Assembly (NCBI GenBank): GCA_963851265.1
Contig: CAWKNZ010000007.1
Span: 160,001 to 224,000, forward strand
Source: an uncultured Gemmatimonadales bacterium
GTDB taxonomy: Bacteria > Gemmatimonadota > Gemmatimonadetes > Gemmatimonadales > Gemmatimonadaceae
DNA: 64,000 bases
Reading direction: 5' to 3'
The notes below the pieces were generated by a model. It made no database searches, was not told the DNA's origin, and saw only the letters and a list, made by a program, of their open reading frames with translations. This document shows, piece after piece, positions 312 to 63,296 of the stretch; position 1 is the first letter of the stretch; each line of letters begins with the position of its first letter. The translations under genes and the position numbers were made by a program.

Positions 312-2482
312 CGCCCAACGTCGGGCGCATCGCGTGCGCGGCCCTCGCCGTCGTCGCCCCGTCGGCGGCGCGCGCGCAGGCGGCGCGCCCGGACACCGTC
401 CGCGCCGACACCGCGCGCCTCGCCCCCGTCACGGTCACCGTCACGCGCACGCCCACCGCGCGCGACCGGGCGCCGTGGGCCGTCGATGTGTTAGGCGCAG
501 GGGCCGTGCGCGGCGCGCGGCTCACCAACGGCGTGGCCGACGCGCTGGCGGAAGTGCCGGGCGTCTACGCCGCCGACCGCGGCAACTACTCGGTCGACCA
601 GCGCATCTCGATCCGCGGCTTCGGCGCGCGCGCCAACTTCGGCCTGCGCGGCGTGCGCGTGACGCTCGACGGCGTGCCGCAGACGCTCCCCGACGGCCAG
701 TCGCAGCTCACCAACCTGGACCTCGCCAGCATCGGCCGGGTCGAGGTGCTGCGCGGGGCGGCGGCCTCGCTCTACGGCAACGCCTCGGGCGGGGTGCTCG
801 CCTTCACCACCGACCTCAGCGCGCCGCCGCGCGGCCTCGCGTTCGGGGGCCGCGTCGAGGAGAGCGCGTACGACACGCAGAAGTACCAGCTGCGCGGCGC
901 CACGCAGTTCGGCAGCACGATCGCCGCGCTCTCCGCCTCTCGGCTCACGACGAACGAGTACCGCCAGCACGCCGACGCCGAGCAGCGGCGGCTGTCGCTC
1001 GTCGCGGACCACGCGTTCACGCCCGCGACCACGGGCACCGTGCGCCTGTACCTCGCCGACGACCCGCAGGCGCAGAACCCGGGCGCGCTCACCCCCGCCG
1101 AGTACGCGCTGCGCCCCGATTCCGCCGCGGGCGTCAACATCCTGCGCGGGGCCGACAAGCACGTGAACCAGCAGCAGCTCGCGCTCGGACTCCGCCACGT
1201 CGGCGACGACGGCGCGCGCGCCGACGTGACCGTGTACGGCGTCGTGCGCGACCTCTGGAACCCGCTCGCCACGCCGCCCCCGGGGGCACCGACCGGCGCG
1301 GCCGGGCTCCGCATCGGCACGCTGACGACCATCTCGCGCCACGCGGGCGGCGCGCGCGCATCCATCGCCCGCCGCCTGCCGTTCGGCGCGGACCCGAGTC
1401 GCGCCCCACTCCTCGCGGTCGGCGCCGAGTACCAGGAGATGCGCGACCTGCGGCAGAACGCGCGAGACACGGGTGGGGAGCGGGTCGGCCGCGCCGACAC
1501 CCTGCTGCTCAACCAGCTCGAGCTGGTGAACAATCTCGCGCCCTTCGCGCAGCTGACGTGGAGCCCGGCGTCGCGCCTGCTCGTCGACGCGGGCGCGCGC
1601 TACGACCGCGTGCGCTTCGCCGTGCGCGACCGCTTTCTCGCCGACGGCGTCAACAACAGCGGCGCGCGCACGATGGCCGCCGCGAGCGGACACGCCGGCC
1701 TGAGCGTCGCGGTCGCCGACGCGTTCACGCCGTACGGCAACGTGTCGACCGACTTCGAGACGCCGACGACCACGGAGCTGCAGGCCCAGCCGGGGAACGT
1801 CGGCGGCTTCTCGCCGACGTTAGGCCCGCAGCGCTCCGCCGGCGCCGAGTTCGGCGCGCGCGGCGAAGGGTTCGGCGCCCGCCTCCGCTACTCCGCCGCG
1901 CTGTTCGCGCTGCGGACGCGCGACGCGATCGTGCAGTGGCAGGAGGTGAACGGGCGCGCGTACTACCGCAACGCCGGCCGCACGCGCACGAGCGGCGGCG
2001 AGTTCGGGCTCGGCGCGCGCGCGCCGCTGCACGGCGTCGCCGACGCGCTCGGGTTGGACGTCGCGTACACGCTGACGCGCGTGCGCTTCGCCGACTACGT
2101 CGTGCAGAACGGTACCTCCGTCACGTCGTTGGGCGGCCGCACGCTGCCGGGCGTTCCCGAGCGCTTCGTGCGCGTCACGGCCCGGGCCCGGCCGCTCACG
2201 GGCGTGCTGGCCCCCCTGGCGCTCGAGGCCGACCACACGTGGGCGTCCGCGCTCTACGGCGACGACGCGAACACCATCCGCGTCGCCGGCTACGGCCGCG
2301 GCGTGCTCAACCTGCGCACGCGCTGGAGTGCCGGACGCGTGCGCCCGTTCATCGCCGTGCAGAACGCGTTCGACCAGCGCTACGTGGGGTCGCTCACGGT
2401 CAACGGGCTCGGCGGACGCGTGCTCGAGCCCGCGCCGGGGCGCACGGCCTACGCGGGGCTGTCGGTCGAGCCCGCGCACTAA
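308..2482 (+). CDS. TonB-dependent receptor (YncD/PqqU-like)
   Basis: Signal peptide, TonB-box-like VTVTVTR, plug motifs ISIRGFGAR and IGRVEVLRGAAASLYGNASGGV, C-terminal NAFDQRY..PAPGRTAYAGLS. Confidence 0.9.
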   Translation: MTPNVGRIACAALAVVAPSAARAQAARPDTVRADTARLAPVTVTVTRTPTARDRAPWAVDVLGAGAVRGARLTNGVADALAEVPGVYAADRGNYSVDQRISIRGFGARANFGLRGVRVTLDGVPQTLPDGQSQLTNLDLASIGRVEVLRGAAASLYGNASGGVLAFTTDLSAPPRGLAFGGRVEESAYDTQKYQLRGATQFGSTIAALSASRLTTNEYRQHADAEQRRLSLVADHAFTPATTGTVRLYLADDPQAQNPGALTPAEYALRPDSAAGVNILRGADKHVNQQQLALGLRHVGDDGARADVTVYGVVRDLWNPLATPPPGAPTGAAGLRIGTLTTISRHAGGARASIARRLPFGADPSRAPLLAVGAEYQEMRDLRQNARDTGGERVGRADTLLLNQLELVNNLAPFAQLTWSPASRLLVDAGARYDRVRFAVRDRFLADGVNNSGARTMAAASGHAGLSVAVADAFTPYGNVSTDFETPTTTELQAQPGNVGGFSPTLGPQRSAGAEFGARGEGFGARLRYSAALFALRTRDAIVQWQEVNGRAYYRNAGRTRTSGGEFGLGARAPLHGVADALGLDVAYTLTRVRFADYVVQNGTSVTSLGGRTLPGVPERFVRVTARARPLTGVLAPLALEADHTWASALYGDDANTIRVAGYGRGVLNLRTRWSAGRVRPFIAVQNAFDQRYVGSLTVNGLGGRVLEPAPGRTAYAGLSVEPAH

Positions 2483-2495
2483 CCAATAGGGCCTC

Positions 2496-11298: not shown

Positions 11299-11388
11299 GC
11301 CCCGGGCTGCGTTAGGCGAACGTGGACGTCCGCGCGAGCGGCGTCCACGCCGCCGGCCCGATCACGAGGCGCACGACTACAACCGCAC

Positions 11389-12207
11389 ATGCCGGGCGCG
11401 AATGGCGTCTTCATCATCGCCCCGGTCGGCGGACCGGCGGGCGCGCGCATCGCCGAGGTGCAGCGCCGCTACGACCCGAAACTCGCGACCGAGGCACGGC
11501 CGCACGTCACGCTCGTCGGCTCGTCGGGAACCGGGCCCATCGATCCGGGCACGCCGCGCGAGCGGATCCGCGAGCTACTCGAACCGGTGCTCGCCGGGGC
11601 CGAGCCGCTCGTGCTGCCGTTCGGCCCGCCCGAGCGGTTCCCGGGCACGAACGTGATCGCGCTCCCGCTCTCGCCGCACGGCCCGATCCGCGCGCTGCAC
11701 GACCGCATCGTCGAGGCGCTGTCGCGCGGCGGGGTGTCGACGGCGCGCGGGCGGTTCACGTTCACCCCGCACGCGACGCTCAGCTTCTACCCGACCCTCC
11801 CGCCCGCCCGGGTGCGCGAGCTGCTGGCGATGCGCTTCGCCGAGCCCGGGGAGCTCGACCGCGTCGAGGTGAGCTACACGCGGGCGCCGCAACCCCCCGT
11901 CACGTGGTGGGAGGCGCCGTTAGGCGGACGACCCCTGAGCGCCGGCGGTCGACCGCGCGACGTTAGGCCGCGCCGCCGCGGTCACCGCAGCCCCGGCACC
12001 CGCTTCACCAGCCGGAGCAGCCCCGCGGTGAATTCCGCGGCCTTGCCCGCGTCCGCGGGCCCGCTCGCCGGTGCGCCGCGCTGCGCGGCGATGGTCTGCG
12101 TCTCGGTGTACTTCAACAGCCCCTCGCTCCCGTGCCGGCGCCCGCCGAGCCCCGAGATCCCCATGCCGCCGATCGGCGCGTCTACCGACGCCCACGTGGC
12201 GGCGTAG
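11389..12207 (+). CDS. 2H phosphoesterase (2'-5' RNA ligase family)
   Basis: Two HxT motifs (PHVTL, PHATL); the domain seems to end near 11930 but the ORF runs on into the convergent gene. Confidence 0.8.
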   Translation: MPGANGVFIIAPVGGPAGARIAEVQRRYDPKLATEARPHVTLVGSSGTGPIDPGTPRERIRELLEPVLAGAEPLVLPFGPPERFPGTNVIALPLSPHGPIRALHDRIVEALSRGGVSTARGRFTFTPHATLSFYPTLPPARVRELLAMRFAEPGELDRVEVSYTRAPQPPVTWWEAPLGGRPLSAGGRPRDVRPRRRGHRSPGTRFTSRSSPAVNSAALPASAGPLAGAPRCAAMVCVSVYFNSPSLPCRRPPSPEIPMPPIGASTDAHVAA

Positions 12208-15146: not shown

Positions 15147-16422
15147 CGTCGTCGGGCAGCTGGTCGAGCAGCGGGCGGAGTTCGGTCGCGCGGTCGAGCG
15201 TGGTCACGAACGTTAGGCCCGGGCGCGTGACGACGAGTACCCCCGACACCCCGTACGCGACCACGATGCCGCCCTCGGCGTGCACCACGCACCCGGACGC
15301 GTCCACCAGGTGCGCCCGCCCCCACACGCCGTTGCCGGTGTCGTCGAGCTCGCGCACGCGGCGGAGCGCGGCCCACGTGCCGACGTCGTCCCATCCGCAC
15401 GCCGCCGGCAGCACGACCAGGTCGGCCACGCGTTCGAGCACGCCGCGCTCGAGCGAGATGCTCTGGACCATCCCGACGAAGCGCTCGAAATCGCCCGCCT
15501 CGAGCGCGTCGAGGCCGGGCGCCAGTTCGGGCGTGCGCGCGGCCACCACTTCGAGCACGGCCCCGGCGCGCGCGACGAGGATACCGGTGTGCCACAGGGC
15601 GCCCTGGCCGATGAGTTCCTCGGCGAGCAACGGTCCGGGCTTCTCGACGAACCGCGCGACGCGCTGCGGCGCGTCGGGCCCGGTCACCTCGGCGTCGAGC
15701 GGGTGCGAGGGCAGCACGTACCCGAACCCGGTTTCGGGGCGCGTGGGTTCGGCGCCGAGGACGACGATGGGTGGCCCCGCCGCGGTGACGCGGGCGGCGC
15801 GGCCGAGCAGCTGACGGAGCGCGCCCGGGTAGGCCACCGCGAGGTCCGCGTGCATCGCGACGAACGTGGTGCGCGGTCCCGCGCGCCGCGCGATCTCGTG
15901 CGCGCCCCACGCGAGCGCCGCCGCCGTACCGGATGGGTGCGGTTCGACGAGGAAGTTGACCGCCGGGACCTCGGGTATCGCGGCGCGCAGGGCGTCCGCG
16001 ATGTCCGCGCTCGTCACGACGAGCACCTGGCTCGCCGGGACCGTCGGCGCGAGCCGCGCGACCGTTTCGGCGATGAGCGGGCGCTCGCCGACGAGGGCGA
16101 GCAGCTGCTTGGGGCGCGCGGGCGAGCTGAGCGGCCAGAAGCGTGACCCGATGCCTCCGGCGAAGATCACCGCCCAGAGCGTGAGTCCCGTCTCGAGCGC
16201 GTCGTCCTCCTCCATCTGCTCCGCCGGCAGCGTGCCGACGGACTCGAGCACGTCACCGGTCGGCGCATCGTCCGCCGCATCGGTCCCGACGGTCGTTCCC
16301 ACGCCCGGCGCGCCGTCCGGTTCTGCCGGATCGTACGGCAGCGTGCCGCCGGCTGCCGGCCTGGAGTTCGGGATCGTGGCGGGAACGCCGTGGAGCGACG
16401 ACAGGTTCGCAGAGCGGGCCAT
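15109..16422 (-). CDS. manC: mannose-1-phosphate guanylyltransferase
   Basis: AGGIGSRFWPLS..PKQLL, PTRPETGFGY, FVEKP, GWDDVGTW; acidic N-terminal extension. Confidence 0.88.
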   Translation of the reverse strand: MARSANLSSLHGVPATIPNSRPAAGGTLPYDPAEPDGAPGVGTTVGTDAADDAPTGDVLESVGTLPAEQMEEDDALETGLTLWAVIFAGGIGSRFWPLSSPARPKQLLALVGERPLIAETVARLAPTVPASQVLVVTSADIADALRAAIPEVPAVNFLVEPHPSGTAAALAWGAHEIARRAGPRTTFVAMHADLAVAYPGALRQLLGRAARVTAAGPPIVVLGAEPTRPETGFGYVLPSHPLDAEVTGPDAPQRVARFVEKPGPLLAEELIGQGALWHTGILVARAGAVLEVVAARTPELAPGLDALEAGDFERFVGMVQSISLERGVLERVADLVVLPAACGWDDVGTWAALRRVRELDDTGNGVWGRAHLVDASGCVVHAEGGIVVAYGVSGVLVVTRPGLTFVTTLDRATELRPLLDQLPDDVRRPGTSGRASP

Positions 16423-21310: not shown

Positions 21311-21385
21311 GCCGCGCCCGCCGCGCGCCACGTTAGGCAGACCGGCGCCCGGAGCGAGCGCCGCCGGGCGCGGCCGCCGCCGTGG

Positions 21386-30748: not shown

Positions 30749-30780
30749 GGGGGGACGTCCGGAGGGACGGAGGTGTGAGC

Positions 30781-37856: not shown

Positions 37857-39527
<1,671 letters not shown>

Positions 39528-43322: not shown

Positions 43323-46300
43323 TCACCACGACGACGCGACGCGTTCGCGCGGCCGCCGGCGGGGCAATCCTGACCGCGGCGGCTCTGCTTTCGGGCGGCT
43401 GCGGCGAGGACCTGCACACCGGACCCGAGAAGTTCCACGCCACCCTCGAGCCGCGGAACTGGGCCGACACCCTCGTCGTGGGCGACGGGCGCCCGGTGGC
43501 GGTCCGCGTGATCGACGACAAGGGGCGGGAGGTGCTCGACGCGTCCGTCCACTGGGCGGTCGCCACGCCGACGATCCTCGGTGCCGCGGCCCTACGCGCA
43601 CCCGTGTCGGCAGGCGCGGCTTCTGAAAGCGTCGCCGCGGGAGGCGTCGATGCTCAGGGCGGCGACAGCGTGCACGTCGACGCGCGCCAGCCGGGCGCCA
43701 CGGACGTCGTGATCACGCTCACCGATCCGCGGTTCTACCCCACCGCGATGACTCGCCGCGCGACCGTGGTCGTGGCCGGGGTGCGCGCCGCGAGCGCGCG
43801 CGACACGACGATCACGGCACTCGGCGACACCGCCGTCGTACTCGGCACTGGCCTCGTCCGCTCGACGAGCACGTCCGGCGCCCTCGTCCCGCGGGCGGGG
43901 CTCGGTGTCCAGTGGACGCGCGTCGGCGCGGGCGCGGTGCAGTTCGCCGGGCCGGTGGGTGACTCCGTGCGCGCCGTTGGGCAGCAGGGCGGCACCGACA
44001 CGCTCGTCGCGACGCATCCGTTCTGCCTCGCCGGCGCGCGCTGCGCGGATACCGTTCTCGTGCACGTCGCGCAGCGCGGATCGCTCGGCGTCAATGCGCC
44101 GGATTTTCGCGCGTGGAGCTTCGGCGATTCCGTCGTGCCGACGGTCGTGCTGCAGGATGCGCGCGGCCACGCCGTCGCGGGCGCTACGCTGCAGGCCGCG
44201 CCGCTCACCGCGGCCGACTCGGCCATCGTGAGCGTCGGCGCCCCCGCTGCCCAACTCGTGCAGGGTGCCGCGCCGAGCGCGGCGCCGGCCCTGCGCGCCG
44301 TACGCGCCGGCGCGAGGGTCGCGGCTCTCCGCGCCGGCCTCGCCCCGACGCCGTTGCGCATGGTGGTGCGGTCGACCGCGGCCTCCACGCCGGCGGCCTC
44401 CTTCACGCAGGCCGCGCCCGTCGCCGTCGCGCCGCTGGTGGCGCAGGGGAACGGGACGGCGCGGGTCGCCCTCCGCGCCGTCGCCGCCGACGGCACCGTG
44501 CTCGCGGTCGACACGATCGCGGTCGTGGTGCGGCAGATCGCCGCGGTGGTGCACGTGACGCCGCCGCAGTCCCTGCTCACGCCCGGCGACTCGATCCCGG
44601 TGCGGATGGAAGCGCGCGATGCGCGCGGGTACGTGATCGCCGACGCGGCGTTCGTGCCCGCGGCCGCCGGTGTCACCGTTTCGGCCGCGGGCATCGTGCA
44701 CGTCGCGCCCGGCGCCGCGGCCGGCACGGCAAGCGTGCTCGCCGCCGTCACCGGCCCCGCCAATCCAGCCGGGTACACCGCGGCGCCGATCCAGGCGCCC
44801 GCCCAGGACACGGCGTGGGTGCGCGTGCGCACGCCACCCGCGATCGTCGCAGGCGACACCACCGGTACGGCGCTCGACGCGCCCGTGTTCAGCCCCGACG
44901 GGCATCCCGTCGCCGGGGCGTGGGTGCGCTTCGTCGTTCCGGCGGGCCGCGTCACGCCGGACTCCGCGCAGACGGGCAGCGACGGCGTCGCGCACGCGGT
45001 GTGGAACCTGCCGACGCGCGCCGGTTCGTACACCGCGTCGGCCGTACTGTTAGGCATCGCGCAGGGCGCGGCAGGCGCCGGGCCGACGGCTGGCGGCGCG
45101 TCGGCGTCCGACTCGGCCGGCCGTATCGTGCTGCGTCGCACGCTCGGTGTGCAGCCCGGTGCGGCGGCCGCGCTGGCGTTGGCGGCCGCGCCGCCCGCGT
45201 CGGCGGCCGCGGGCGCGATCCTCGGCGCCGCTCCGGCGGTTCAGGTGACCGACTCGTCGGGGAACCCGGTGCACGTCGCCGGCCTTCCGGTCGTCGCGTC
45301 GTTAGGCGCCGGCGCGGTCGGGACGCTCGCCGGCACCCTCACCGTGCCGACGGATTCCGCCGGCGTCGCGCACTTCGCCGACCTCGTGCTGAGCGGCGCT
45401 GCCGGGGCACGTACGCTGCGCTTCAGCGCGCCGTCGCTCGCGCCGGTGACCTCGGGCGCGATCGTGGTCACGGTCGGCTCGGTCAGCGCCGGGCAGATCG
45501 TCGTCACGCTCTCCGCTCCGACGGTCGCGAGCGGCGCGACGGCGACGGTGACCGTCACCCCGCGCGACGAGGGCGGCAACCCGATCGGCGCGGGGCGCAC
45601 CGTCGTGATCTCCGTCGGGGGCGGCGCCGGGAACGCCGCGGCGAGCACCGCGACGGTGTCGGCCGTCCGCGACGCGGGCGACGGCACCTACGTCGCGACG
45701 CTGACGGGCGTGCGCGCCGGCAGCGCGGTCCCGATCAGCGCCACCGTCGACGGCGTGGCCGCGACCAGCACGCCGGCGCTGCAGGTCACCGGAGGCACGG
45801 CCGCGCGCTTGACACTCTCGCCGGCCACGCTGCACTTCGCCTCGCTCGGCGCCACGGCGACGTTAACGGTCACGAGCGCGACGGACGCGGCCGGGAACGC
45901 GGTCCCGACCATAGGCCTCGTCTGGTCGTCGGCCAGCGGCGTGGCCGCGGTCGTCGGCGGCGGTGACGCGACCGGGACCGTCACTGCGGTAGGCGGCGGC
46001 ACGACCACGATCACCGCCACCCTCGGCACCGTGACGGCCACTTCGGCCGTGACCGTGCAGCAGGTCACGGCGCAGCTGGTGCGCGTCGCCGGCGACGGCG
46101 GAACGGCCGTCCTCGGCACCGCGCTCCCCACGGCGCCGTCGGTGCGCGCGGTCGACGCGGGTGGCGCGAACGTGGCCGGCGTGCCGGTGACGTTCTCGAT
46201 CGGCACCGGCGCCGGACCGGGCGCGACCATCGGTGGCGGCACCACGCAGACGGTCACGACCGGCGCGAACGGCGTCGCCACGGCGGGCAGCTGGACGCTC

Positions 46301-48815: not shown

Positions 48816-50723
48816 GTGACACCGCGGCGTCTGGCGCGTCGGAGGGAGAGTGTGGCGACCACGCCACACCCCCCCTCGTCGCATCCGACCTCCCCACCGC
48901 CGGTCCCGCCTCGCGTGCTCGTTGCCCCCGCCGCCATCGCCCTCGTCCGGCGTGCGTTCGCGCTGTTCGTCCGCCCCAACCGGCGCCGCGTCGCGATCAC
49001 GTTCGCCGGCGCGCTCAGCGTCGCGGTCGCCGCAGCGGCCGAGCCGCTCGTCTTTCGCTCGCTCGTCGACTTCCTCACGAGCGCGGCGCGCGCGGGTGGG
49101 GTGGGCGCGTCGCCGGCGGCGCTGCGTGGACTCGCGCAGGCGGTGGGCGCGATCGCGGTCGTGCTCGCGTGGCGTACGCTCGCCGGCGCGCGCGTCACCG
49201 TGGCGACGTGGCAGGTGCGGCTCGGCGTCGAGTACCAGCTCCGCCGACACGTCGCGGCCAAGCTGAGCGTGCTCTCGCCGCACACGCAGGCCGAGATCGG
49301 CACGGGCGGCCTGCGCTACGCCATCGAGAGCAGTGCGCCGCAGACCGCGGGCGCGTTCACGGACGTCGCCTACCGCCTGTTACCGACCGTCGTCTACGTC
49401 ACCGTCGCGGCGTGGGGCATGTGGCGGCTGCAGCCCGCGCTCGCCGCGGCCGTGCTCTGCCTCGTCCCGATCCCGGCCGCGCTCGCCGCCGCCGCCGCGC
49501 CGCAACAGGCCGCGCGCGACGCGATGCACCACACGTTCTGGACCCGGCTCTGGGCCTGGTACGGCGAGGTGCTGCACGGAATGGGCACCGTGCGCGCGTT
49601 CACCAACGAGCGCGCCGAGGAGCACCGCTTCCTGCGCCGCACGCGCTGGGCGTTCGCGAGCATCCGCCGCGGGGTGCACTCCGACGCCCGCGTCACGGCC
49701 GCCGCGGGCGCGGCCGAACTCGTCGCGCGCCTCGCGGTGCTCGGCTACGGCGGCTGGCTCGTGCTCCGCGGCGCGCTCACGTTAGGCGCTCTCCTCGCGC
49801 TGTGGGGCTACGTCGGCGGCGTGTTCGCGCCGGTGTCGCTGCTGGTCGAGACGTACCCGGCCGTGCGCAAGGCCGTCGTCGCGCTCGAGTCGGTGTTCCG
49901 AGTGCTCGACGCCGAAGAGGAGTCGCCCGACCTGCCCGACGCCGTGCCCGCGCCCGTACTCCGTGGGCGCGTGACGTTCGAGAACGTCCGCTTCTCGTAC
50001 GACGGCGCGCGCGCCGCGCTCGACGGGCTGCGCGTGGACGTCGCGCCGGGCGAGACCGTCGCGCTCGTCGGCCCGTCGGGCGGCGGCAAGTCGACCGTGC
50101 TGCGCCTGGTGCAGCGCGTGCACCAGCCGACGAGCGGGCGGGTTCTGCTCGACGGCCATGACCTGCGCGGGCTGCAGGTGGCGAGCGTCCGGCGCCAACT
50201 CGGCGTCGTGCCGCAGGAGGTGGTGCTCTTCGCGGGTTCGATCGCCGCGAACATCGCGTACGGGCGTCCGACGGCCACGCGCGCCGAGGTCGAGGCGGCC
50301 GCGCGTGCCGCGAACGCGGACGAGTTCATCCGGGCCATGCCCGGCGGCTACGAGCATCGCGTGGGCGAGGGCGGCCGCGGACTCTCGGGCGGTCAGCGCC
50401 AGCGGATCGCCATCGCGCGTGCGTTCCTCGTCGACCCCGCGGTGCTCCTGCTCGACGAGGCCACGGCCGCGCTCGATGCAGAGAGCGAGCGCGCGGTGCA
50501 GGACGCGTTGCGCGCGCTCCGGCGCGGGCGCACGACGTTCGTCGTCGCACACCGTCTCAACACCGTGCGCGACGCCGACCGGATCCTCGTCGTGCAGGGC
50601 GGCCGGATCGTCGGCGACGGGCCGCACGAGCGCCTGCTCACGGACTGCCCCACGTACGCCGCGCTGGTCGCGCAGCAGCTCGGGGCGGCGGAGCGACCGC
50701 CGGCGCTGCGACTGGCCGCGTGA
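48816..50723 (+). CDS. ABC exporter, fused permease-ATPase (MsbA/MdlB-like)
   Basis: N-terminal TMD, GPSGGGKS, LSGGQRQR, LLLDEAT, AHRL. Confidence 0.93.
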   Translation: MTPRRLARRRESVATTPHPPSSHPTSPPPVPPRVLVAPAAIALVRRAFALFVRPNRRRVAITFAGALSVAVAAAAEPLVFRSLVDFLTSAARAGGVGASPAALRGLAQAVGAIAVVLAWRTLAGARVTVATWQVRLGVEYQLRRHVAAKLSVLSPHTQAEIGTGGLRYAIESSAPQTAGAFTDVAYRLLPTVVYVTVAAWGMWRLQPALAAAVLCLVPIPAALAAAAAPQQAARDAMHHTFWTRLWAWYGEVLHGMGTVRAFTNERAEEHRFLRRTRWAFASIRRGVHSDARVTAAAGAAELVARLAVLGYGGWLVLRGALTLGALLALWGYVGGVFAPVSLLVETYPAVRKAVVALESVFRVLDAEEESPDLPDAVPAPVLRGRVTFENVRFSYDGARAALDGLRVDVAPGETVALVGPSGGGKSTVLRLVQRVHQPTSGRVLLDGHDLRGLQVASVRRQLGVVPQEVVLFAGSIAANIAYGRPTATRAEVEAAARAANADEFIRAMPGGYEHRVGEGGRGLSGGQRQRIAIARAFLVDPAVLLLDEATAALDAESERAVQDALRALRRGRTTFVVAHRLNTVRDADRILVVQGGRIVGDGPHERLLTDCPTYAALVAQQLGAAERPPALRLAA

Positions 50724-50879: not shown

Positions 50880-52238
50880 ATGCCGCCTGTCGGTCCCCGC
50901 ACGGCCCTCGCGCCGGGCGAGCGCGTCTGCATCGTGGGTGCGGGGTGCTCGGGGATCGCCACGGCCAAGGCTCTCGCCGAGCGCGGCGTGCCGTTCGACT
51001 GCTACGAACAGGGCTCGGCGTTAGGCGGCCTCTGGCCGTACGAGAACGACAACGGCCGGAGCGGGGCGTACGAGTCGCTCCACCTCGACTCGAGCACGCG
51101 GAACACGCAGTTCTCCGACTTTCCGATGCCGGAGAACTACGCCGACTTCCCGCAACACGCCGACGTGCTGCGGTACCTCGAAGCGTACGCCGAGCACTTC
51201 GGCGTGACGCCGCACGTCCGCTTCCGCACCGACGTGGTGCGCGTCGTCCCGACCCGCGACGCGGCCCGGAACTCGAGCGCGATCGCCTGGGACGTGACCC
51301 TGCGCGACCGCGACGGCGCGCACGAGACGCGGCGGTTCGGGGCCGTCGCGGTGTGCACGGGGCACCACTGGAACCCGCGCGTCCCCGACTACCCGGGCCA
51401 CTTCGACGGCGAAACGCTGCACTCGCACGACTACCGCCGTCCGGACGCGTACGCGAAGCGGCGCGTGCTCGTCGTCGGCATCGGCAACTCCGCCGTCGAC
51501 ATCGCGGTCGACCTCGTGGGTGTGGCCGGACGCGTGACGCTTTCGACGCGCTCGAGCGCGTGGATCGTCCCGAAATACCTGCTGGGTCGTCCGGCCGACC
51601 GCTGGATCACGCGCGCGAGCGAGCGCGTCCCGCGGTGGATCCGGGCGTGCGCGTACCGCGTGCTCGTCTACCTCGCGGCCGGCGACCAGACGCGCCACGG
51701 CATCCTCGCCGCGCACCCGACGCTGACCCAGGACCTGCTCACACACGTCGCGCACGGGCGCGTCGCGGTGCGGCCGAACGTCGCCGAGTTGGACGGATCG
51801 GAGGTCGTGTTCGAGGACGGCACGCGCGAGCCGTTCGACGCCATCGTCTATGCGACGGGGTACCGCGTGACGTTCCCGTTCCTCGCGCCCGACGTGGTCG
51901 CGGTCGACGAGAATCGCGTGGCGCTCTATCAGCACGTGGTCGAGCCGCGGGTCCCCGGGCTCTACTTCGTCGGGCTCGTCCAGCCGGCCGGGTCGGTGGT
52001 CCCGATCGCCGAGCGGCAGGGGCGGTGGGTCGCCGGGCTCGTCGCCGGCGACTGGATCCTGCCCGACGTCGACACGATGCGGCGCTCGATCGCGGCCGAG
52101 GCCCGGGCGGTCGCCGCGCGCCACCGTGCGTCGGCGCGGCACGCGATGCAGGTCGACTTCTGGACGTACGCGGGCCAGATCGAGCGCGAGATGCGCGACG
52201 GCGCGCGGCGGATCGGCGCGCGCCGCGCCGTCGCCTAA
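50880..52238 (+). CDS. flavin-containing monooxygenase (class B FMO)
   Basis: GAGCSG, GGLW, FDGETLHSHDYR fingerprint, GIGNSA, ATGY. Confidence 0.92.
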   Translation: MPPVGPRTALAPGERVCIVGAGCSGIATAKALAERGVPFDCYEQGSALGGLWPYENDNGRSGAYESLHLDSSTRNTQFSDFPMPENYADFPQHADVLRYLEAYAEHFGVTPHVRFRTDVVRVVPTRDAARNSSAIAWDVTLRDRDGAHETRRFGAVAVCTGHHWNPRVPDYPGHFDGETLHSHDYRRPDAYAKRRVLVVGIGNSAVDIAVDLVGVAGRVTLSTRSSAWIVPKYLLGRPADRWITRASERVPRWIRACAYRVLVYLAAGDQTRHGILAAHPTLTQDLLTHVAHGRVAVRPNVAELDGSEVVFEDGTREPFDAIVYATGYRVTFPFLAPDVVAVDENRVALYQHVVEPRVPGLYFVGLVQPAGSVVPIAERQGRWVAGLVAGDWILPDVDTMRRSIAAEARAVAARHRASARHAMQVDFWTYAGQIEREMRDGARRIGARRAVA

Positions 52239-52257
52239 CGCGGAATCGCGTCCCGCG

Positions 52258-53184
52258 TCAGTGTGCGGGCCACAGCCACGCCGCGCCGCGCACGCCGCTG
52301 GAGTCACCGTGGAGCGCGCGCACGACGCGCGTGGCGAGCGGCGGCGCGCCCGCCGCCCCGCCCGTGGCGGAGAAGACGTTCGCCCCCAGTCGCGCCCCCG
52401 CGGCCTCGGCCATGCCGGGCACGTTCGACATGCCGCCGCCGAGCACGACGACGTCGGGGTCGAGCAGGTTCACGACCGTCCCGAGCGCGCGAGCGAGCCG
52501 GTCGTGGTAGCGCTCGAGCGACGCGACGGCCCCGGGTTCGCCGCGGGCCGCCGCCGCGACGATCTCGACGGTCGTGCGCGATTCCCCCGTGTGCGCGGCG
52601 TGGTCGCGCGCGAAGGCCGGCCCCGACACGAACTGCTCGACGCAGCCGGTGCGGCCGCAGTAGCAGGGCGGCCCGGGCAGCTCGTCGGCGCGCGCCCACG
52701 GCAGCGGGTTGTGGCCCCACTCGCCGCCGAGCGAGTTCGCGCCGGTGAGGCAGGCGCCGTCGACGACCACGCCGCCCCCCACGCCGGTCCCGAGAATCAC
52801 GCCGAAGACCACCGGCGCGCCGGCGCCCGCGCCGTCGGCCGCCTCGGAGAGCGCGAAGCAGTTGGCGTCGTTGGTCAGCCGCACGCGGCGGCCCAGCGCG
52901 AGCGCGAGGTCGTCGCCTAACGGACGGCCGTTGAGCCACGTCGAGTTCGCGTTCTTGACGAGGCCCGTGGCGGGGACGACCGCGCCGGGGATTCCGATGC
53001 CGACCGGCGCGTCACCCGCCACGTCCGCGGCGCGCGCGACATCCGCGACGAGGGACGCCACGGCGGCGAGCGTTCCGGCGTAGTCACGCGGCGTCGGTAC
53101 GCGCCGCCGAACCACCTCGCCGCCGTCGTCCGCGAGGGCGAGCGCTTCGATCTTGGTACCGCCGAGGTCTATGCCGAGCCGCAT
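52258..53184 (-). CDS. ROK family sugar kinase (Mak/fructokinase-like)
   Basis: GIDLGGTK, NDANCFALSE, LGTGVGGG, GEWGH, CYCGRTGC, GDSSGVRGAA. Confidence 0.92.
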   Translation of the reverse strand: MRLGIDLGGTKIEALALADDGGEVVRRRVPTPRDYAGTLAAVASLVADVARAADVAGDAPVGIGIPGAVVPATGLVKNANSTWLNGRPLGDDLALALGRRVRLTNDANCFALSEAADGAGAGAPVVFGVILGTGVGGGVVVDGACLTGANSLGGEWGHNPLPWARADELPGPPCYCGRTGCVEQFVSGPAFARDHAAHTGESRTTVEIVAAAARGEPGAVASLERYHDRLARALGTVVNLLDPDVVVLGGGMSNVPGMAEAAGARLGANVFSATGGAAGAPPLATRVVRALHGDSSGVRGAAWLWPAH

Positions 53185-54546: not shown

Positions 54547-55863
54547 TCAGGCGTCCGCCGGCGCGTGCGCGGAAGGGCGGTCGCGCAGCCCCCACCACAC
54601 CGGCACCCCCGCGAGCACCGTCGCGAGTCCGAGCAGCGACTCGCGCGGCCGCTCCGCGAGCACGAACCCCAACGTCCAGAGCGACACCGCCACGTAGACG
54701 AGCGGTGTCACAGGGTAGCCCCACGCCCGGTACGGCCGCGGAAGCGCCGGCTCGCGAACGCGGAGCACCAACAGCCCCACCACGGCGAGCAGCGAGGTGA
54801 GCGTGAGCGTGAACCCGGTGTAGGCCATCACGCGCTCGAACGAGTTGGTGAGCAGGAGCAGCGCGACGAGCGCGGCCTGCGCGAACACGGCGTTCCGGGG
54901 CGTACCCCCGGCGGTCCGGGCGGAGAGCACGCCGGCACGCTGCATCCCGCCCGCGACCGCCTGCGTCACGCGCGAGCCGGCGAGCACCATCGCGCTCACC
55001 GTCGCCACGAGCAGGAGGGCGATCGTCGCGCTCACCACCGTCGCGCCGGCGGGGCCGAACGCGTGGCGCGCGGCGAGCGCGCCGACCTCGACGACCCCCT
55101 CGAGGTCGGCGAGCGGGGCGAGCCGCAGGAACGTGTAGTTGAGCAGCAGGTAGCACCACGCGACCAGTCCGGTGCCTAACGCCGCGGCGAGTGGCACGGC
55201 GCGCCGCGGGTCGCGCACCTCGCCCGCGACGTAGCCGGCGGCGTTCCACCCCGTGTAAGCGTACCCCACGTAGACGAGCGACACGGCGAACGCGGGGCTC
55301 GCCACCTCGCGCCACGCGTCGGGCGTGGGCGCGAGCGGGACTGGCTGGCCTCCGCGCGCGAGCCCGGCCGCGACGAACCCGACGATCAGCAGCAGGTTGG
55401 CCACGGTGAGCGCCACCTGCACGCGGCGCCCGGCCGTGAGGTTGGTGGCATGGAGCAGCGCGGCCGCACCAACGAGGACGAGCGAGGCGGGCAGCGGCGC
55501 CACCGGGACGACCGCGCCGACGTAGCGACCGAACGCGATGCCTGCCAGGGCGATAGGCGCGGCGAAACCCGCGGTCATCGACACCCATCCGCCGAGGAAA
55601 CCGACGAGCGGATGGTACGCGCGCCCGAGGTAGACGTACTCGCCGCCCGAGCGCGGCAGAGCGGCGCCGAGCTCGGCGTACGACAAGGCGCCGCAGGCGG
55701 CGGCGACGCCGCCCACCACCCAGAGCAGCAGGAGGGCGAACGTCGTGTGCAGGCCGCGCGCCTGGAAGCCGAGCGACGTGAACACGCCGGTGCCGACCAT
55801 GTTGCTCACGAGCAGCGCCGTGAGCGTGACGCGACCGATGCCGTCGCCGACCGCGCCGGTCAC
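54547..55863 (-). CDS. APC family amino-acid permease
   Basis: NMVGTGVF, YAELG..PRSGGEY, YAYTGWN, RPYRAWGYP. Confidence 0.92.
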   Translation of the reverse strand: MTGAVGDGIGRVTLTALLVSNMVGTGVFTSLGFQARGLHTTFALLLLWVVGGVAAACGALSYAELGAALPRSGGEYVYLGRAYHPLVGFLGGWVSMTAGFAAPIALAGIAFGRYVGAVVPVAPLPASLVLVGAAALLHATNLTAGRRVQVALTVANLLLIVGFVAAGLARGGQPVPLAPTPDAWREVASPAFAVSLVYVGYAYTGWNAAGYVAGEVRDPRRAVPLAAALGTGLVAWCYLLLNYTFLRLAPLADLEGVVEVGALAARHAFGPAGATVVSATIALLLVATVSAMVLAGSRVTQAVAGGMQRAGVLSARTAGGTPRNAVFAQAALVALLLLTNSFERVMAYTGFTLTLTSLLAVVGLLVLRVREPALPRPYRAWGYPVTPLVYVAVSLWTLGFVLAERPRESLLGLATVLAGVPVWWGLRDRPSAHAPADA

Positions 55864-55887: not shown

Positions 55888-57612
55888 TCACGCCGGGGTC
55901 GTGCTCGCGGGCGGGTCGTCGCGCAGCACGCGGCGGAGCACCTTCCCCACGGTGGAACGCGGCAGCGTGTCGCGCAGCTCGATGGTGCGTGGCACCTTGA
56001 ACGACGCGAGCCCGGTGCGGCAGTGCGCGACGAGCTCTTCGGCGGTCGCGGCCGCGCCGGGGCGGAGCACGACCGCGGCACGCACCACCTCGCCCATGTA
56101 CGCGTCGGGTGCGGCGAACGCCGCCGCCTCCTGCACCGCCGGGTGTTCGTGCAGCAACTCCTCGATTTCGCGCGGATAGACGTTGTAGCCGCCGACGAGG
56201 ATCAGGTCCTTCTTGCGATCGACGATGCGCACGTAACCGTCGCCGTCCATTACGCCGACGTCGCCGGTGTGGAGCCACGGCGAACCGCCGTCGCCGTGGT
56301 CGCGCAACGCCGCCGCGGTCTCGTCGGGCCGGTCGTAGTACCCGAGCATGACGTTGGGCCCGCGCACGCAGACCTCGCCCGGCTCGCCCGCGCCCACCGG
56401 GCGGCCATCGTCGTCGACGAGCACGCAATCGACGTCGCTGATCGGCACGCCGACCGTGCCCTCGTGCGGCGCGCGGCCGGGCACCTGGGCGTGCGTCGTC
56501 GGCGCCGCCTCACTCAGCCCGTAGCCCTCCAGGATCGACACGCCCGTGCGCGCGGTGAACTCCCGCGCGACCTCGACGGGGAGCGGCGCGGAACCGGAGT
56601 TGACGAGCTTCAGGCGCGCGAACGCGGACGCCCGCGACGGGTCGGCCGCGAGCGCGGCGTTGAACGCGACGAACATCGCCGGCACGCCCGGAAACACCGT
56701 GGCCCGCGTGCGTTCGAGCAGGTCGAGCGCATCCGTCACGTCGAAGCGCGGCAGCAACGCGAGGGTCGCCCCGCCCGCGACCACGCTGAGGTTGAGCGCG
56801 CAGGTCAGTCCGTAGATGTGAAAGAAGGGGATGATCGCGACGCACGTCTCCGCGCCGTCCGTCAGCTGCGGGCACCAGGCGTGCGACTGGAGCGCGTTGG
56901 CCACCACGTTACGGTGCGAGAGCATGGCGCCCTTGCTCGCGCCGGTCGTGCCGCCCGTGTACTGCAGCACGGCGACGTCGCGGTCGACGTCCACCGCGAC
57001 GGGCGCGGCGGGGCCGCGCGCCTCGGCCAGCAGCGCCTCGAGCCGGTACACGCCCTCCCGCTCGGGAACCTCGATATAGGTGCCCTCCGCGCGCGCTCTG
57101 GCGACGTAGCCGGCCGCGACGGGCGCGGGCATCGCCTCTTCCAGCCCCGTCACGACCACGCGGCGTACCGGCGTTCCCCCGGCAATCGCGTCGAACACGC
57201 GCAGCATCGGCGCGAGCACGACGAACGTCTCCGCGCCCGAGTCGCGCAACACGTGGCCGAGTTCGCGCGGCGTGTAGAGCGGGTTGAGGCCGAGCACCGT
57301 CGCGCCCGCGCGCAGCGCGCCGTAGAACGCGACCGCGAACTGCGGGCAGTTGGGCAGCATGAGTGCCACGCGGTCGCCCTTGCGGATGCCTAACGACTGG
57401 AGCGCCGCGGCGAACCGCTCCACGCGGTCGTGCAGCTCGCGGAAGGACGTGGTCGCCCCGTAGAACAGGAAGAGCGCGCGGTCACCGAACCGTTCGGCCG
57501 CGGAGCGCACGTACGCGTGGAGCGGCAGGTCCGGGTAGGGCGCGAGACTGCGCGGCACGATGGCCGGGTACTGCGCGAGCCAGGGGCGGGTGCTCGGGAC
57601 GGTCGCAGTCAT
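55888..57612 (-). CDS. long-chain fatty acid-CoA ligase (FadD-like)
   Basis: YTGGTTGASKG, EGYGLSE, WLHTGD, DRKKDLI, VGKVLRR. Confidence 0.93.
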   Translation of the reverse strand: MTATVPSTRPWLAQYPAIVPRSLAPYPDLPLHAYVRSAAERFGDRALFLFYGATTSFRELHDRVERFAAALQSLGIRKGDRVALMLPNCPQFAVAFYGALRAGATVLGLNPLYTPRELGHVLRDSGAETFVVLAPMLRVFDAIAGGTPVRRVVVTGLEEAMPAPVAAGYVARARAEGTYIEVPEREGVYRLEALLAEARGPAAPVAVDVDRDVAVLQYTGGTTGASKGAMLSHRNVVANALQSHAWCPQLTDGAETCVAIIPFFHIYGLTCALNLSVVAGGATLALLPRFDVTDALDLLERTRATVFPGVPAMFVAFNAALAADPSRASAFARLKLVNSGSAPLPVEVAREFTARTGVSILEGYGLSEAAPTTHAQVPGRAPHEGTVGVPISDVDCVLVDDDGRPVGAGEPGEVCVRGPNVMLGYYDRPDETAAALRDHGDGGSPWLHTGDVGVMDGDGYVRIVDRKKDLILVGGYNVYPREIEELLHEHPAVQEAAAFAAPDAYMGEVVRAAVVLRPGAAATAEELVAHCRTGLASFKVPRTIELRDTLPRSTVGKVLRRVLRDDPPASTTPA

Positions 57613-57727
57613 GGGGGCGAGCGGGTGCCGGTGGGCGAAGGGCGGCGTGGTGTGCCGCGCGCGAAAGGTGGCCGCCGGCGCGCGCGGGCGGTACGTGGTG
57701 ACCGGGGGATGCGCTAGACTGCCCACC

Positions 57728-58577: not shown

Positions 58578-59192
58578 GTGGCGTTAGGCGACATCATCCG
58601 CGCGGCCGCGGACCGGCTCGGCGTCCCGCTCCCGCCGCCCCGCGCCGTGTACTCGGTACAGGGCATGCGCGTCGCGGTCGAGAACACGCGGGCCGACGTG
58701 TCGACCCCGGCGGTGCTCGAGCGCCTCGACGAGGCCCTCCGGCTCATCGCCCACTACCAGCCGTGGCGCCTCGCGCACCTTCGCCGCGACGCGCGCGAGA
58801 TCCGCGTCGTGCGGTTCGCCTGCCGCGGCGCGTTCCTCCCCGCCGAACGCGCGGTGATCACCGAGCTCACGTTCCTCGCGCGGCGCGACATCACCGCCGC
58901 GCCCGTCGCGTCGTCGATCGTACACGAGGGGGTGCACGCGCGCCTGCACGCCGCGTCGGAGCGCTTCGGCTGGCGACGCGACGAGGAGCGGTGGGCGGCC
59001 GACCTGCCGCGCGAGGAGCGACTGTGCCGGCGTGCGGAGGTCGAGTTTGGGCGCGCGCTCCCGCCGGCGCTCGGCGCGCCGGTGATCGCGCGGGCGGCGG
59101 GGATGCTCGACCTCGCCGACGAGGACGTGGCGCCCGCCGTCGACTGGCAGCTGGCCGAGGAGCGGATTCGGGGCGCGGACCGCGGTGCCTGA
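58578..59192 (+). CDS. hypothetical protein with HExxH motif
   Basis: SIVHEGVHARL with downstream EERLC. Confidence 0.65.
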   Translation: MALGDIIRAAADRLGVPLPPPRAVYSVQGMRVAVENTRADVSTPAVLERLDEALRLIAHYQPWRLAHLRRDAREIRVVRFACRGAFLPAERAVITELTFLARRDITAAPVASSIVHEGVHARLHAASERFGWRRDEERWAADLPREERLCRRAEVEFGRALPPALGAPVIARAAGMLDLADEDVAPAVDWQLAEERIRGADRGA

Positions 59193-61793: not shown

Positions 61794-61865
61794 GGGTCGC
61801 TCCGGTTCGGGGGTGAGCCCGAACGCCAGGCAGGGGCCGTACCAGCGCCCGCCCGCGCCGCGTGG

Positions 61866-63296
61866 TCAGAGCAGCGTCCCGCGCAGGATCACGACGGCCA
61901 CCGAGAAATAGATGATCAGCCCCGTCACGTCGACGAGCGTCGCCACGAACGGCGCGGACGCGCTCGCCGGGTCGAAGCCGAGCCGCTTGAGCAGGAACGG
62001 CAGCATGCTCCCGGCGAGCGAGCCGAACGCGACGATGCCGACGAGCGCGGTGCCGACCGTGAGCGCGACGAGCCAGTGGTGCACGCCGTAGTTGAACAGC
62101 CCGAGGTGCTGCCACAGCTCGATCCGCACGAACCCGATCACGCCGAGGATGCCGCCTAACACGAGCCCTGTGGGGAGTTCGCGCACCGCCGTGCGCCACC
62201 AGTCCTTGAGCTGCAGCTCGCGCAGCGCGAGCGCGCGGATGATGAGCGACGTGGCCTGCGATCCCGAGTTTCCGCCGCTCGACATGACGAGCGGGATGAA
62301 CATCGAGAGCACGACGGCCTTCTCGATCGTCCCCTCGAAGCGCTGCATCGCCGTGGCGGTGAGCATTTCGGACAGGAAGAGCGCGCACAGCCACCCGCCG
62401 CGCTTTCGGATCATGGCCCAGAACCCGATGCGCGTGTACGGCACGTCGAGCGCCTCCACGCCGCCGAGCTGCTGGATGCTCCGCGTCTGCTCGCGCACGA
62501 TCGCGTCGATCACGTCGTCCACCGTCACGATCCCGAGCACGCGCCCGCCCTCGTCCACCACCGGGACCGCGAGCAGGTTGTACTTGCCGACGATCCGCGC
62601 GACGGCCGCGCGCGGCGCGTCGGCGCGCACGGTCACGGGCGCGCGGCGGACGCCGACGTCCAGCAGCGGCTGCTCGCGCGGGGCGACGAGCAGGTCGCGC
62701 AACGAGACCGCACGCACGAGCCGGCCGAGCGCCGGGTCCGTGCCGGCTTCGGTGCCGCGCGCGCCCGACTCGGTCACGTACGCCACGTAGACGGTTTCCT
62801 TGCCCTTGGCCACGCGCGCGATCTCGTCGAGCGCGGCACCCGCCGTGAGCGTGCTCGGGAGCGCGACGAACTCGGTGGTCATGATCCCGCCGGCCGTGTC
62901 GGGCGGGTAGCGCAGGAGCAACTCGAGCGTCCGGCGCGTCTCGGGTTCGACGCGGCCCAGCAGCCGACGCCGGTCGGCGTCGGAGAGTTCGCGGAAGACG
63001 TCGGCCTGCTGGTCCGCGCTCATCGCGTCGACGAGGGCGCCGGCCGAGGCGTCGTCCATCCGGCAGACGAGGTCCGCGCGCCGATCCGCCAGCTCCGGCT
63101 CGTCGAAGGTCTGCACCGCGAGGTCGAACGGGAGCGCCGCGAGCACCTTCGCGCCCGCGTCGGGCGGCAGCTGCAGCAGCGACTCCGCGATGTCGGCCGG
63201 TCGCATCCCGTTGCAGGCGTCGGCCAACTCCTCCGGATCGCGATGTACGAGGTAGAGCAGTTCGGCAGGTGAGTTGGACGGCGCGGCGGCTGGCAT
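61866..63296 (-). CDS. mgtE: magnesium transporter MgtE
   Basis: YPPDTAGGIMT, CBS pair, GIVTVDD, SSGGNSGSQ, DPASASAPFVATLVD. Confidence 0.96.
   Translation of the reverse strand: MPAAAPSNSPAELLYLVHRDPEELADACNGMRPADIAESLLQLPPDAGAKVLAALPFDLAVQTFDEPELADRRADLVCRMDDASAGALVDAMSADQQADVFRELSDADRRRLLGRVEPETRRTLELLLRYPPDTAGGIMTTEFVALPSTLTAGAALDEIARVAKGKETVYVAYVTESGARGTEAGTDPALGRLVRAVSLRDLLVAPREQPLLDVGVRRAPVTVRADAPRAAVARIVGKYNLLAVPVVDEGGRVLGIVTVDDVIDAIVREQTRSIQQLGGVEALDVPYTRIGFWAMIRKRGGWLCALFLSEMLTATAMQRFEGTIEKAVVLSMFIPLVMSSGGNSGSQATSLIIRALALRELQLKDWWRTAVRELPTGLVLGGILGVIGFVRIELWQHLGLFNYGVHHWLVALTVGTALVGIVAFGSLAGSMLPFLLKRLGFDPASASAPFVATLVDVTGLIIYFSVAVVILRGTLL

Follow-up and report, generated by a model that had tools for sequence, protein, structure and literature searches.

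Genome-wide enrichment of the octamer YGTTAGGC in Gemmatimonadota: a candidate tag for DNA exchange that matches the integron core site

Genome-wide self-words are known as working systems, to our knowledge, so far only from the Neisseriaceae, whose DNA uptake sequence (DUS) is read by the minor pilin ComP, and from the Pasteurellaceae, which use an uptake signal sequence (USS). A word with a similar footprint is described here from the genome of an uncultured Gemmatimonadales bacterium. It was noticed in a stretch of 64,000 nucleotides (GenBank assembly GCA_963851265.1, contig CAWKNZ010000007.1, positions 160,001 to 224,000; hereafter the window), in which the heptamer GTTAGGC recurs on both strands and always after a pyrimidine. 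It is established that the octamer YGTTAGGC is enriched genome-wide, in a strand-symmetric manner, as a whole word and at the level of DNA. Its interpretation as a self-tag spread by biased DNA exchange is put forward tentatively.

As with USS, a short exact core is spread over the genome on both strands, mostly within genes and in the frames of least cost; as far as the accessible parts of the USS literature go, both words are also common to related species and drop steeply from the perfect to the mismatched form. The present word differs from USS in its phylum and its letters, in having only 8-9 informative bases with no flanking AT-rich segments seen, and in an enrichment that switches on and off inside one genus (g48), the likeness being one of sequence footprint. 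As in the Neisseriaceae, a clade-specific, 'dialect'-like self-word is accompanied by generic type IV pilus, ComEC and DprA genes. Differences from DUS are that no ComP_DUS-type protein was found in the window's genome, that inverted pairs of the terminator type are rare and that the largest word-free gaps lie in replication and translation operons. In the accessible part of Helsem et al. (2025), DNA uptake-enhancing sequences (DUES) are reported to be biased toward genome-maintenance genes. An earlier note on the window, made from its sequence, knew of no description of the motif, and literature searches agree: among the matches listed (primers, DtxR/IdeR iron boxes and similar) none described the heptamer as a genome-wide signal, no paper on Gemmatimonadota and uptake sequences turned up in the literature searched, and none of the titles listed on Gemmatimonadota and integrons was about YGTTAGGC.

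Enrichment of the word and the level at which it is read

The earlier note had counted by eye 27 copies of GTTAGGC in the window (GC 71-76%), of which 14 are plus-strand and 13 minus-strand, and an exact recount agrees in number, in place and in the preceding base, which is a pyrimidine in 27 of 27 copies (23 C and 4 T, the latter at 489, 39019, 45048 and 62154). Dinucleotide shuffling of the window leaves 1.68 ± 1.37 copies on average and 6 at most, and 0 of 100 shuffles reach 27. The whole genome (G000; an assembly of 4.60 Mb in 12 contigs with 73% GC, of which the window is C7:160001-224000) carries 1762 copies on both strands, where Markov models of orders 1-3 expect 96-160. Counted as octamers on both strands, these are CGTTAGGC (1396), TGTTAGGC (243), AGTTAGGC (54) and GGTTAGGC (69); the same models expect 50-82 octamers. 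YGTTAGGC, with 1639 copies against 123 of RGTTAGGC, occurs about once per 2.6 kb. Copies are divided equally between the strands (708 forward, 688 reverse), and GTTAGGC is present on all 12 contigs at 0.33-0.55 per kb. Among heptamers with at least 150 copies, it ranks first under an order-2 model and second, after an overlapping heptamer, under order 3. Maximal-order Markov models are unsuitable here and mask the word, because 98% of all TTAGGC have a G in front and the sub-words are dominated by the word itself; orders 1-3 and codon shuffles were used instead.

Genes were called with a picker of open reading frames (ORFs) using log-odds of GC content at the third and second codon positions (GC3/GC2), a crude procedure whose starts are especially uncertain; it gave 3675 genes and 86% coding sequence, and products were assigned by Pfam. 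Coding DNA holds 1261 copies of GTTAGGC against 70.1 ± 4.9 after within-gene shuffling of synonymous codons (20 shuffles), which preserves the protein and each gene's codon usage, including the TTA codons contributed by GTTAGGC itself, while shuffling of codon order leaves 63.9. The excess belongs to the exact word, with observed/expected ratios for YGTTAGGC of 18.9, 1.19, 1.05 and 1.02 at mismatch loads of 0, 1, 2 and 3. None of the 21 one-mismatch changes at the seven core positions of the octamer is comparably enriched, except the synonymous neighbour CGTTGGGC (726 observed, 316 expected, or 2.3-fold over) and, weakly, CGTTCGGC; the variant CGTTAGCC is found 20 times against 48-82 expected. 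Over-representation that drops steeply and non-linearly with mismatch is described for DUES in the accessible part of Bakkali (2007), and the fall from 18.9 to 1.19 matches the pattern as given there. On each of the points at which the earlier note had thought its claim could fail, the claim stands: the excess persists over a null that keeps protein and codon usage, one-mismatch variants and RGTTAGGC do not share it, and it extends beyond the window to all contigs and to other assemblies. A second word that appeared enriched under low-order Markov models, GTTGTAGA, proved to be the antisense of common Tyr-Asn codon pairs, without a flank signal, and was discarded.

That YGTTAGGC is a signal read on the DNA itself, and not as a codon, is well supported. 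In the sense direction the word fills 981 of 10579 x-Leu-Gly contexts (9.3%), with the result that 981 of the 1261 TTA codons in G000 (78%) fall inside it, a proportion that the earlier note had proposed to count; 989 TTA codons have GGC next. In the antisense direction it fills 190 of 1403 x-Pro-Asn contexts (13.5%) and 65 of 1809 [GRSC]-Leu-Thr contexts (3.6%), and the Val-Arg-x frame, which needs two rare codons, is filled in 25 of 3389 cases (0.7%). Antisense Pro-Asn is filled no less often than sense Leu-Gly, so that the 4:1 preponderance of sense copies reflects how common the peptides are. Flank preferences (C 79% and T 14% at -1; G 54%, A 22%, C 19% and T 5% at +1) do not differ between sense, antisense and non-coding copies, and beyond these two positions no conserved flank was found around the copies in G000. 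Copies that do not lie wholly in coding sequence number 488 of 1762 (28%), the density being 0.75 per kb in non-coding and 0.32 per kb in coding DNA, and of the copies in spacers that separate tandem genes 90 are in sense and 92 in antisense, without orientation bias. The word also supplies 204 stop codons, 123 of 427 TAA (29%) and 81 of 743 TAG, and 123 of 852 Ala-terminated genes end in GCC-TAA-C. In a relative with 61% GC (G012), 100 kb contain 57 sense and 59 antisense copies with the -1 preference unchanged (105 C, 18 T, 2 other).

These data also bear on a translation-level signal, in which a rare TTA followed by GGC would be a regulatory or recoding site. The capture of most TTA codons by the word, and their placement before GGC, would suit it. 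However, antisense filling exceeds sense filling, more than a quarter of the copies lie outside coding sequence with no preferred orientation, and sense and antisense numbers are equal in G012; such a signal may practically be dismissed. The core of the earlier note's inference, that it is the DNA word and not the protein or codon on which selection acts (or drive, as may be added), is well supported by context filling, flanks, spacers, stop codons and the symmetry in G012.

Distribution among genomes and along the chromosome

Genomes were scored as enriched when they contained at least 150 copies of the word and at least twice the count of the reversed word. Thirteen of 41 relatives are enriched, including all five (5/5) of the window's genus and G012, with 6360 copies. 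An even sample of the phylum (301 genomes) yields 12 enriched genomes: family f1 contributes 10 out of 70 and family f2 contributes 2 out of 125, with no enrichment in its 3 genomes of f3 or its 103 genomes of families f4-f12. Enrichment is patchy, involving three families of one order; besides g48, the enriched clades include g1, g9, g30, g46, g47, g51 and g76. Within genus g48, 12 of 26 genomes carry 1586-4141 copies and 14 carry 4-66, and density across enriched genomes ranges from 0.05 to 1.25 per kb, a 25-fold spread. The tallies take in the unpublished genomes G011, G086, G125, G204 and G342, all of them non-enriched, and no statement hinges on any one. Among sequencing runs, a single soil metagenome contained a minor portion (0.13) of a 10-kb stretch. 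In non-enriched relatives the word is 5-30 times rarer than the reversed control.

Turnover of the sites could be followed in G004 and G001, with which the window is syntenic at about 82% identity. At aligned places the exact word is retained in 12 of 19 cases from the window to G004 and 5 of 12 to G001, in 12 of 32 from G004 to the window, 5 of 24 from G001 to the window, and 14 of 29 between G004 and G001 either way. As controls, all heptamers are retained at 29-30%, the common-codon heptamer GCTCGGC at 25-42% and the rare-codon heptamer GTTGGGC in 4 of 20 (G004) and 1 of 13 (G001) cases, with a range of 1-4 of 7-20. At sites present in one species only, the other mostly reads GCTCGGC, GTTGGGC or GCTGGGC, all of them coding for Leu-Gly as well and one or two synonymous steps away. 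Word sites are therefore kept above chance and yet gained and lost within the genus, which fits a drive balanced by mutation and also a function that needs density and not fixed places.

The strand of the word correlates with local gene orientation (Spearman 0.57) and hardly with GC skew (0.07), and strand choice in 100-kb bins has no excess variance left once peptide contexts are taken into account (sum of z-squared 48.7 over 46 bins). For genes on the locally minor strand, filling is reduced in sense and antisense contexts alike, where polarity would shift the two in opposite directions. At dnaA the GC skew flips sign and the word strand does not, both in G012 (27+/24- on the left, 27+/38- on the right) and in G305 (12/12 and 15/13); on a contig of G241 the word strands are balanced. 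A polar signal for recombination or translocation of the Chi, KOPS (FtsK orienting polar sequences) or SRS (SpoIIIE recognition sequences) type, these being polar 8-mers read by RecBCD/AddAB or FtsK/SpoIIIE, would resemble the word in its 8 bp and in its spacing, since the density of Chi in E. coli is similar. Such readings are removed by the lack of replichore polarity, there being none beyond gene orientation and no strand switch at the two GC-skew origins; moreover, FtsK is single-copy in 26 of 26 g48 genomes, enriched or not, with extra partial hits in two assemblies. A polar signal is accordingly regarded as highly improbable.

Gaps between words in G000 are near-exponential with a mean of 2592 bp, close pairs being depleted (46 gaps below 200 bp against 130 expected, and 193 below 500 bp against 307). 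The largest, at C1:182876-227962, measures 45,086 bp, for an exponential expectation of about 5e-5; the next largest is 22 kb. This zone has normal GC and offers 134 Leu-Gly contexts with zero copies. Its genes are core ones (chorismate mutase, PGM, MnmG/GidA, ParA, ParB, an ABC importer and kinases), and its GC3 is 0.911 against 0.946 for the rest of contig C1. The orthologous DNA, partly rearranged between genomes and with the usual 75-83% nucleotide identity, holds about 4 sites in 43 kb in G004 (genome-wide 0.43 per kb) and about 3 sites in 27 kb in G001. The zone could be recombination-cold or covered by ParB. Exclusion of the word from the ParB zone was rejected as a general rule, as parB of G012 has copies of the word close by, at -0.1 and +0.9 kb, and no gap; a parS consensus gave no match at up to 2 mismatches, and the parAB zone is not marked by any repeated 14-bp palindrome. 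Further large gaps span dnaN-dnaA-rnpA-yidC, infC-rpmI-rplT-pheST, nusA-infB-rbfA-truB, his genes and a type VI secretion block. The idea that word deserts are foreign islands was also abandoned, since the deserts hold core operons. In five of six genomes dnaA lies inside a gap, of 15 kb in G000 (C1:2107-17073), 19 kb in G001, 7 kb in G004 and 5 kb each in G305 and G012; in G241 a copy of the word lies inside dnaA.

Occupancy of the available contexts also follows GC3. Filling of Leu-Gly and Pro-Asn contexts in G000, with word codons masked, rises 5-fold from 3.4% in the lowest tenth of GC3 to 18.1% in the highest, and across GC3 tertiles of G004 and G001 (about 255 kb each) it rises 13-fold, from 1.6% to 22% and 20%, respectively. 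In G305 (60 kb, 59 genes) filling is flat. Word density increases with local GC from 0.24 to 0.51 per kb. The gradient may arise because the word is costlier where rare codons matter, because GC3 and the word both track local recombination, or from both causes; GC3 is a possible footprint of recombination-linked GC-biased gene conversion. The rise of filling with GC3 and the 45-kb parAB word-free zone are new here.

Copies in the window

The copies in the window are listed in the table, together with the attC-like sites discussed below. Nineteen of the 27 read TTA-GGC within called genes. The earlier note had given 20; the remaining one, at 11919, is uncertain, being in frame only in the uncalled ORF 11389-12207. 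The seven exceptions that it had named (antisense copies in the ManC-like gene and the adhesin gene, copies that supply the stop codons of DUF1800 (TAG) and of the flavin monooxygenase (TAA), and 11311, 11962 and 21332 outside genes) are as it described them. The ABC-F/EttA-like gene at 37857-39527 has 93% nucleotide identity to its counterparts in G003 and G004, its neighbours about 80%, which could reflect strong constraint or recent exchange. At window positions 29403-29421, G004 and G001 carry an insertion of 1.2-1.3 kb that is absent from G000 and has word copies inside; in G001 one copy abuts its right border.

Table. Octamer copies in the window (window coordinates) and attC-like sites elsewhere in G000 (contig coordinates)
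Element	Position	Strand	Context and state in G004 and G001
TGTTAGGC	489..496	+	TTA-GGC in TonB-dependent receptor gene 308-2482(+); G004 ortholog GCTCGAC
CGTTAGGC	1818..1825	+	TTA-GGC in TonB-dependent receptor gene 308-2482(+); not alignable to G004 or G001
CGTTAGGC	11310..11317	+	Outside called genes, 13 nt past stop of ORF 8827-11298
CGTTAGGC	11918..11925	+	Outside called genes; TTA-GGC only in uncalled ORF 11389-12207; kept in G004
CGTTAGGC	11961..11968	+	Outside called genes; 43 nt downstream of copy 11918
CGTTAGGC	15211..15218	+	Antisense GC-CTA-AC in ManC-like nucleotidyl-transferase gene 15109-16251(-); G004 and G001 GTGAGCC
CGTTAGGC	21331..21338	+	Outside called genes
CGTTAGGC	24460..24467	+	TTA-GGC in class A penicillin-binding protein gene 22743-24812(+); kept in G004 and G001
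CGTTAGGC	25061..25068	-	TTA-GGC in small ORF 24809-25120(-), without Pfam match
CGTTAGGC	25994..26001	-	TTA-GGC in diacylglycerol-kinase-like gene 25178-26128(-); kept in G004 and G001
CGTTAGGC	27372..27379	-	TTA-GGC in ABC ATPase gene 26958-27632(-); G004 GCTCGGC, G001 GTTGGGC (both Leu-Gly)
CGTTAGGC	30440..30447	-	TTA-GGC in DUF1501 gene 29417-30748(-); kept in G004, not G001
CGTTAGGC	30779..30786	-	TAG stop of DUF1800 gene 30781-32805(-); kept in G004
CGTTAGGC	31786..31793	-	TTA-GGC in DUF1800 gene 30781-32805(-); G004 GTTGGGC, G001 GCTGGGC
TGTTAGGC	39019..39026	+	TTA-GGC in ABC-F (EttA-like) gene 37857-39527(+); kept in G004 and G001
CGTTAGGC	39649..39656	-	TTA-GGC in GH31 glycosidase gene 39607-42009(-)
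TGTTAGGC	45048..45055	+	TTA-GGC in Big_1/invasin/lectin adhesin gene 43319-48256(+); G004 GCTCGGC
CGTTAGGC	45300..45307	+	TTA-GGC in adhesin gene 43319-48256(+); kept in G004
CGTTAGGC	46339..46346	-	Antisense CCT-AAC (Pro-Asn) in adhesin gene 43319-48256(+); G004 GCCGGCC
CGTTAGGC	49780..49787	+	TTA-GGC in ABC exporter gene 48915-50723(+); kept in G004 and G001
CGTTAGGC	51019..51026	+	TTA-GGC in flavin monooxygenase gene 50805-52238(+)
CGTTAGGC	52233..52240	-	Complement GCC-TAA-C is TAA stop of flavin monooxygenase gene 50805-52238(+)
CGTTAGGC	52915..52922	-	TTA-GGC in ROK-family gene 52258-53184(-); kept in G004 and G001
CGTTAGGC	55174..55181	-	TTA-GGC in amino-acid permease gene 54547-55863(-)
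CGTTAGGC	57388..57395	-	TTA-GGC in AMP-binding enzyme gene 55888-57963(-); kept in G004, G001 GTTCGGC
CGTTAGGC	58582..58589	+	TTA-GGC at extreme start of ORF 58578-59192(+), start uncertain; kept in G004, G001 GTTCGGC
TGTTAGGC	62154..62161	-	TTA-GGC in MgtE gene 61866-63227(-); kept in G004
attC-like sites (n=8)	C10:188936-203792; C6:1592-1708, 34252-34324; C9:56165; C11:4066

Biased exchange as a proposed reading, the integron core and competing explanations

The reading favoured here, with a confidence that falls a little short of even, is that YGTTAGGC may be a self-tag spread by biased DNA exchange, by analogy with DUS and USS, and we infer that its reader belongs to a DNA exchange machine. 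On this reading the word (8 bp, the next base being usually G, A or C and seldom T) would be a strand-symmetric DNA signal maintained whole. Recipients would favour fragments bearing it in uptake, or donors would favour them in export or packaging, and these fragments would replace the homologous stretch through recombination; the word would spread wherever coding and codon constraints permit, and mutation would erode it. DUS and USS are thought to accumulate through a molecular drive of this kind. Whole-word specificity, placement at the DNA level, lack of polarity, turnover by synonymous substitution, the scarcity of close pairs and the rise of filling with GC3 all speak for it. A donor-side form of the same drive would resemble the TraB recognition sequences of Streptomyces conjugative plasmids, where a DNA translocase can mobilise chromosomal DNA carrying an 8-bp word, with the difference that no extra FtsK/TraB-type gene was seen in enriched g48 genomes. 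G000 possesses DprA, ComEC, three HHH_3 (ComEA-type) matches and a PilQ-like secretin just below cut-off, a transformation machinery that is permissive only.

Several observations weigh against biased exchange. ComEC is present in 40 of 41 relatives irrespective of enrichment, and is uninformative. The ComP_DUS model PF16732 has no match in G000 and passes its cut-off in one of 41 genomes, a non-enriched one, weak hits elsewhere being unrelated to enrichment; a lamin-tail domain, present in 8 of 41 relatives, is equally unrelated. No candidate in the single-gene search for a reader (integrase, ComEC, ComP-type pilin, lamin-tail, FtsK) follows enrichment. Opposite-strand pairs are few: of the 1750 gaps between neighbouring copies, 6 separate such pairs by less than 40 bp and 11 by 40-160 bp; in the accessible part of Helsem et al. 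(2025), inverted pairs in terminators are common for DUS and terminators contain about half of the DUES. Core operons and the 45-kb parAB zone make up the largest word-free stretches, which a simple rule of 'native has, foreign lacks' would not predict. The GC3 gradient could be codon selection in expressed genes, and the identity of the word with the integron core is unexplained by exchange.

This identity is a point that the earlier note had missed. As described in the accessible part of PMC3053210, attC sites are imperfect palindromes of 57-141 bp between RYYYAAC and GTTRRRY, and the cassette borders targeted by the integrase are GTTRRRY. GTTAGGC fits GTTRRRY and its complement fits RYYYAAC, as these consensuses are given there. 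The word is one of only 16 among 16384 heptamers that fit, so that chance is not a comfortable explanation, and it is the actual R''/R' box of the attC-like sites of G000. Spacers of this genome contain 8 GCCTAAC...GTTAGGC pairs, 66-149 bp apart, four of which fold as a typical imperfect palindrome (z -2.3, -4.7, -5.95 and -1.9 against shuffles), and these four carry C or T at -1 like the dispersed copies. Four of the sites lie within 15 kb on C10, without a nearby integrase, and probably form a cassette array. In non-enriched relatives most of the listed copies stand in same-strand arrays with 500-700 bp spacing. The integron integrase (TIGR02249) exceeds its cut-off in 25 of 41 relatives; it is full-length in the enriched genomes G003, G004, G017, G023, G038 and G040 as well as in many non-enriched ones, and is split, broken or not found in the enriched G000, G001, G002, G008, G012 and G018 (broken in G001 and G012). 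The G000 gene, C6:3005-6044(-), is in two pieces (model positions 2-265 and 260-313) about 2.1 kb apart, as if interrupted by an insertion, and spacer copies of the word adjoin it.

An integron link, with the copies as targets of the integron integrase or a related tyrosine recombinase that might act as landing pads across the genome or give rise to new cassettes, draws on this agreement at both attC ends, on the folded pairs with their shared -1 base, on the arrays and on the frequency of integrases. It is nevertheless quite unlikely as an account of the enrichment. An attC-like partner exists for only 16 of the 1762 copies, over 99% being solitary, without inverse core or palindrome, and most copies stand in frame within housekeeping genes, where insertions would be harmful. 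Interspecies differences at word sites are in-frame point substitutions and not insertion scars, indel borders in the 64 kb of three-way synteny do not consistently fall at the word, and integrase presence does not track enrichment. A site for an abundant chromosomal DNA-binding protein (nucleoid organiser, occlusion-type factor or loop anchor), selected at about one per 1-3 kb, is unlikely too but deserves more credit: exact 8-bp specificity, strand symmetry and the depletion of close pairs all suit it, and the gidA-parA-parB zone with its word-poor orthologs and the gaps around dnaA recall the exclusion zones typical of occlusion-type factors. Against it stand the 25-fold spread in density and the near absence of the word from 14 of 26 g48 genomes, which is unlike a housekeeping organiser, the missing gap at parB in G012 and the copy inside dnaA in G241, and the turnover of half of the sites between congeneric species; known organiser sites, moreover, number tens to hundreds and not thousands.

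Biased repair or gene conversion inside the cell, in which near-cognates would be turned into the word by a nicking or mismatch enzyme, possibly partnered by a methylase, is improbable. The over-representation of CGTTGGGC is in its favour, and filling that follows GC3 fits any recombination-linked conversion. Yet no one-mismatch class is depleted in a way that could account for the surplus of about 1300 8-mers, most gains require two substitutions (e.g. CTC to TTA), and in G000, which is 94% complete, a search for PF00145 (C5), PF01555 (N4/N6) and PF03852 (Vsr), other methylase families not being searched, found none. Two PF02384 (N6_Mtase) loci, C7:771474-772495 and C9:923-1858, are broken over several frames, as pseudogenes or through assembly indels. 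The same search separates the word from the HIP1 octamer of cyanobacteria, which is also hyper-abundant within genes: HIP1 is palindromic and tied to a methylase, whereas YGTTAGGC is asymmetric and no intact methylase of three major families was found in G000. Of the partners that the earlier note had offered, an uptake-type reader therefore stays the best fit, the nucleoid organiser is kept at the lower standing given above, and methyltransferase-linked repair bias is disfavoured. There is finally a combined possibility, itself a long shot, that a third independent self-tag system, the first outside the Proteobacteria, has the integron core deliberately as its word, chromosomal exchange and cassette traffic in these Gemmatimonadaceae then sharing one recognition module.

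If the word is a self-tag, such tags would be a recurrent solution and not a proteobacterial oddity, here in an abundant, little-studied soil phylum. Its identity with the integron core raises the question of why; were the two to share a recognition module, any chromosomal gene with the word at its borders could become a substrate for capture, and this would open a way to the unsolved question of how gene cassettes arise. The split of genus g48 into enriched and non-enriched genomes provides a natural on/off contrast for finding the reader by association. In practical terms, the word takes precedence over codon usage, since 78% of TTA codons and 29% of TAA stops belong to it; it can serve as a marker, and codon-based inference is therefore distorted in the genomes that are enriched in it.

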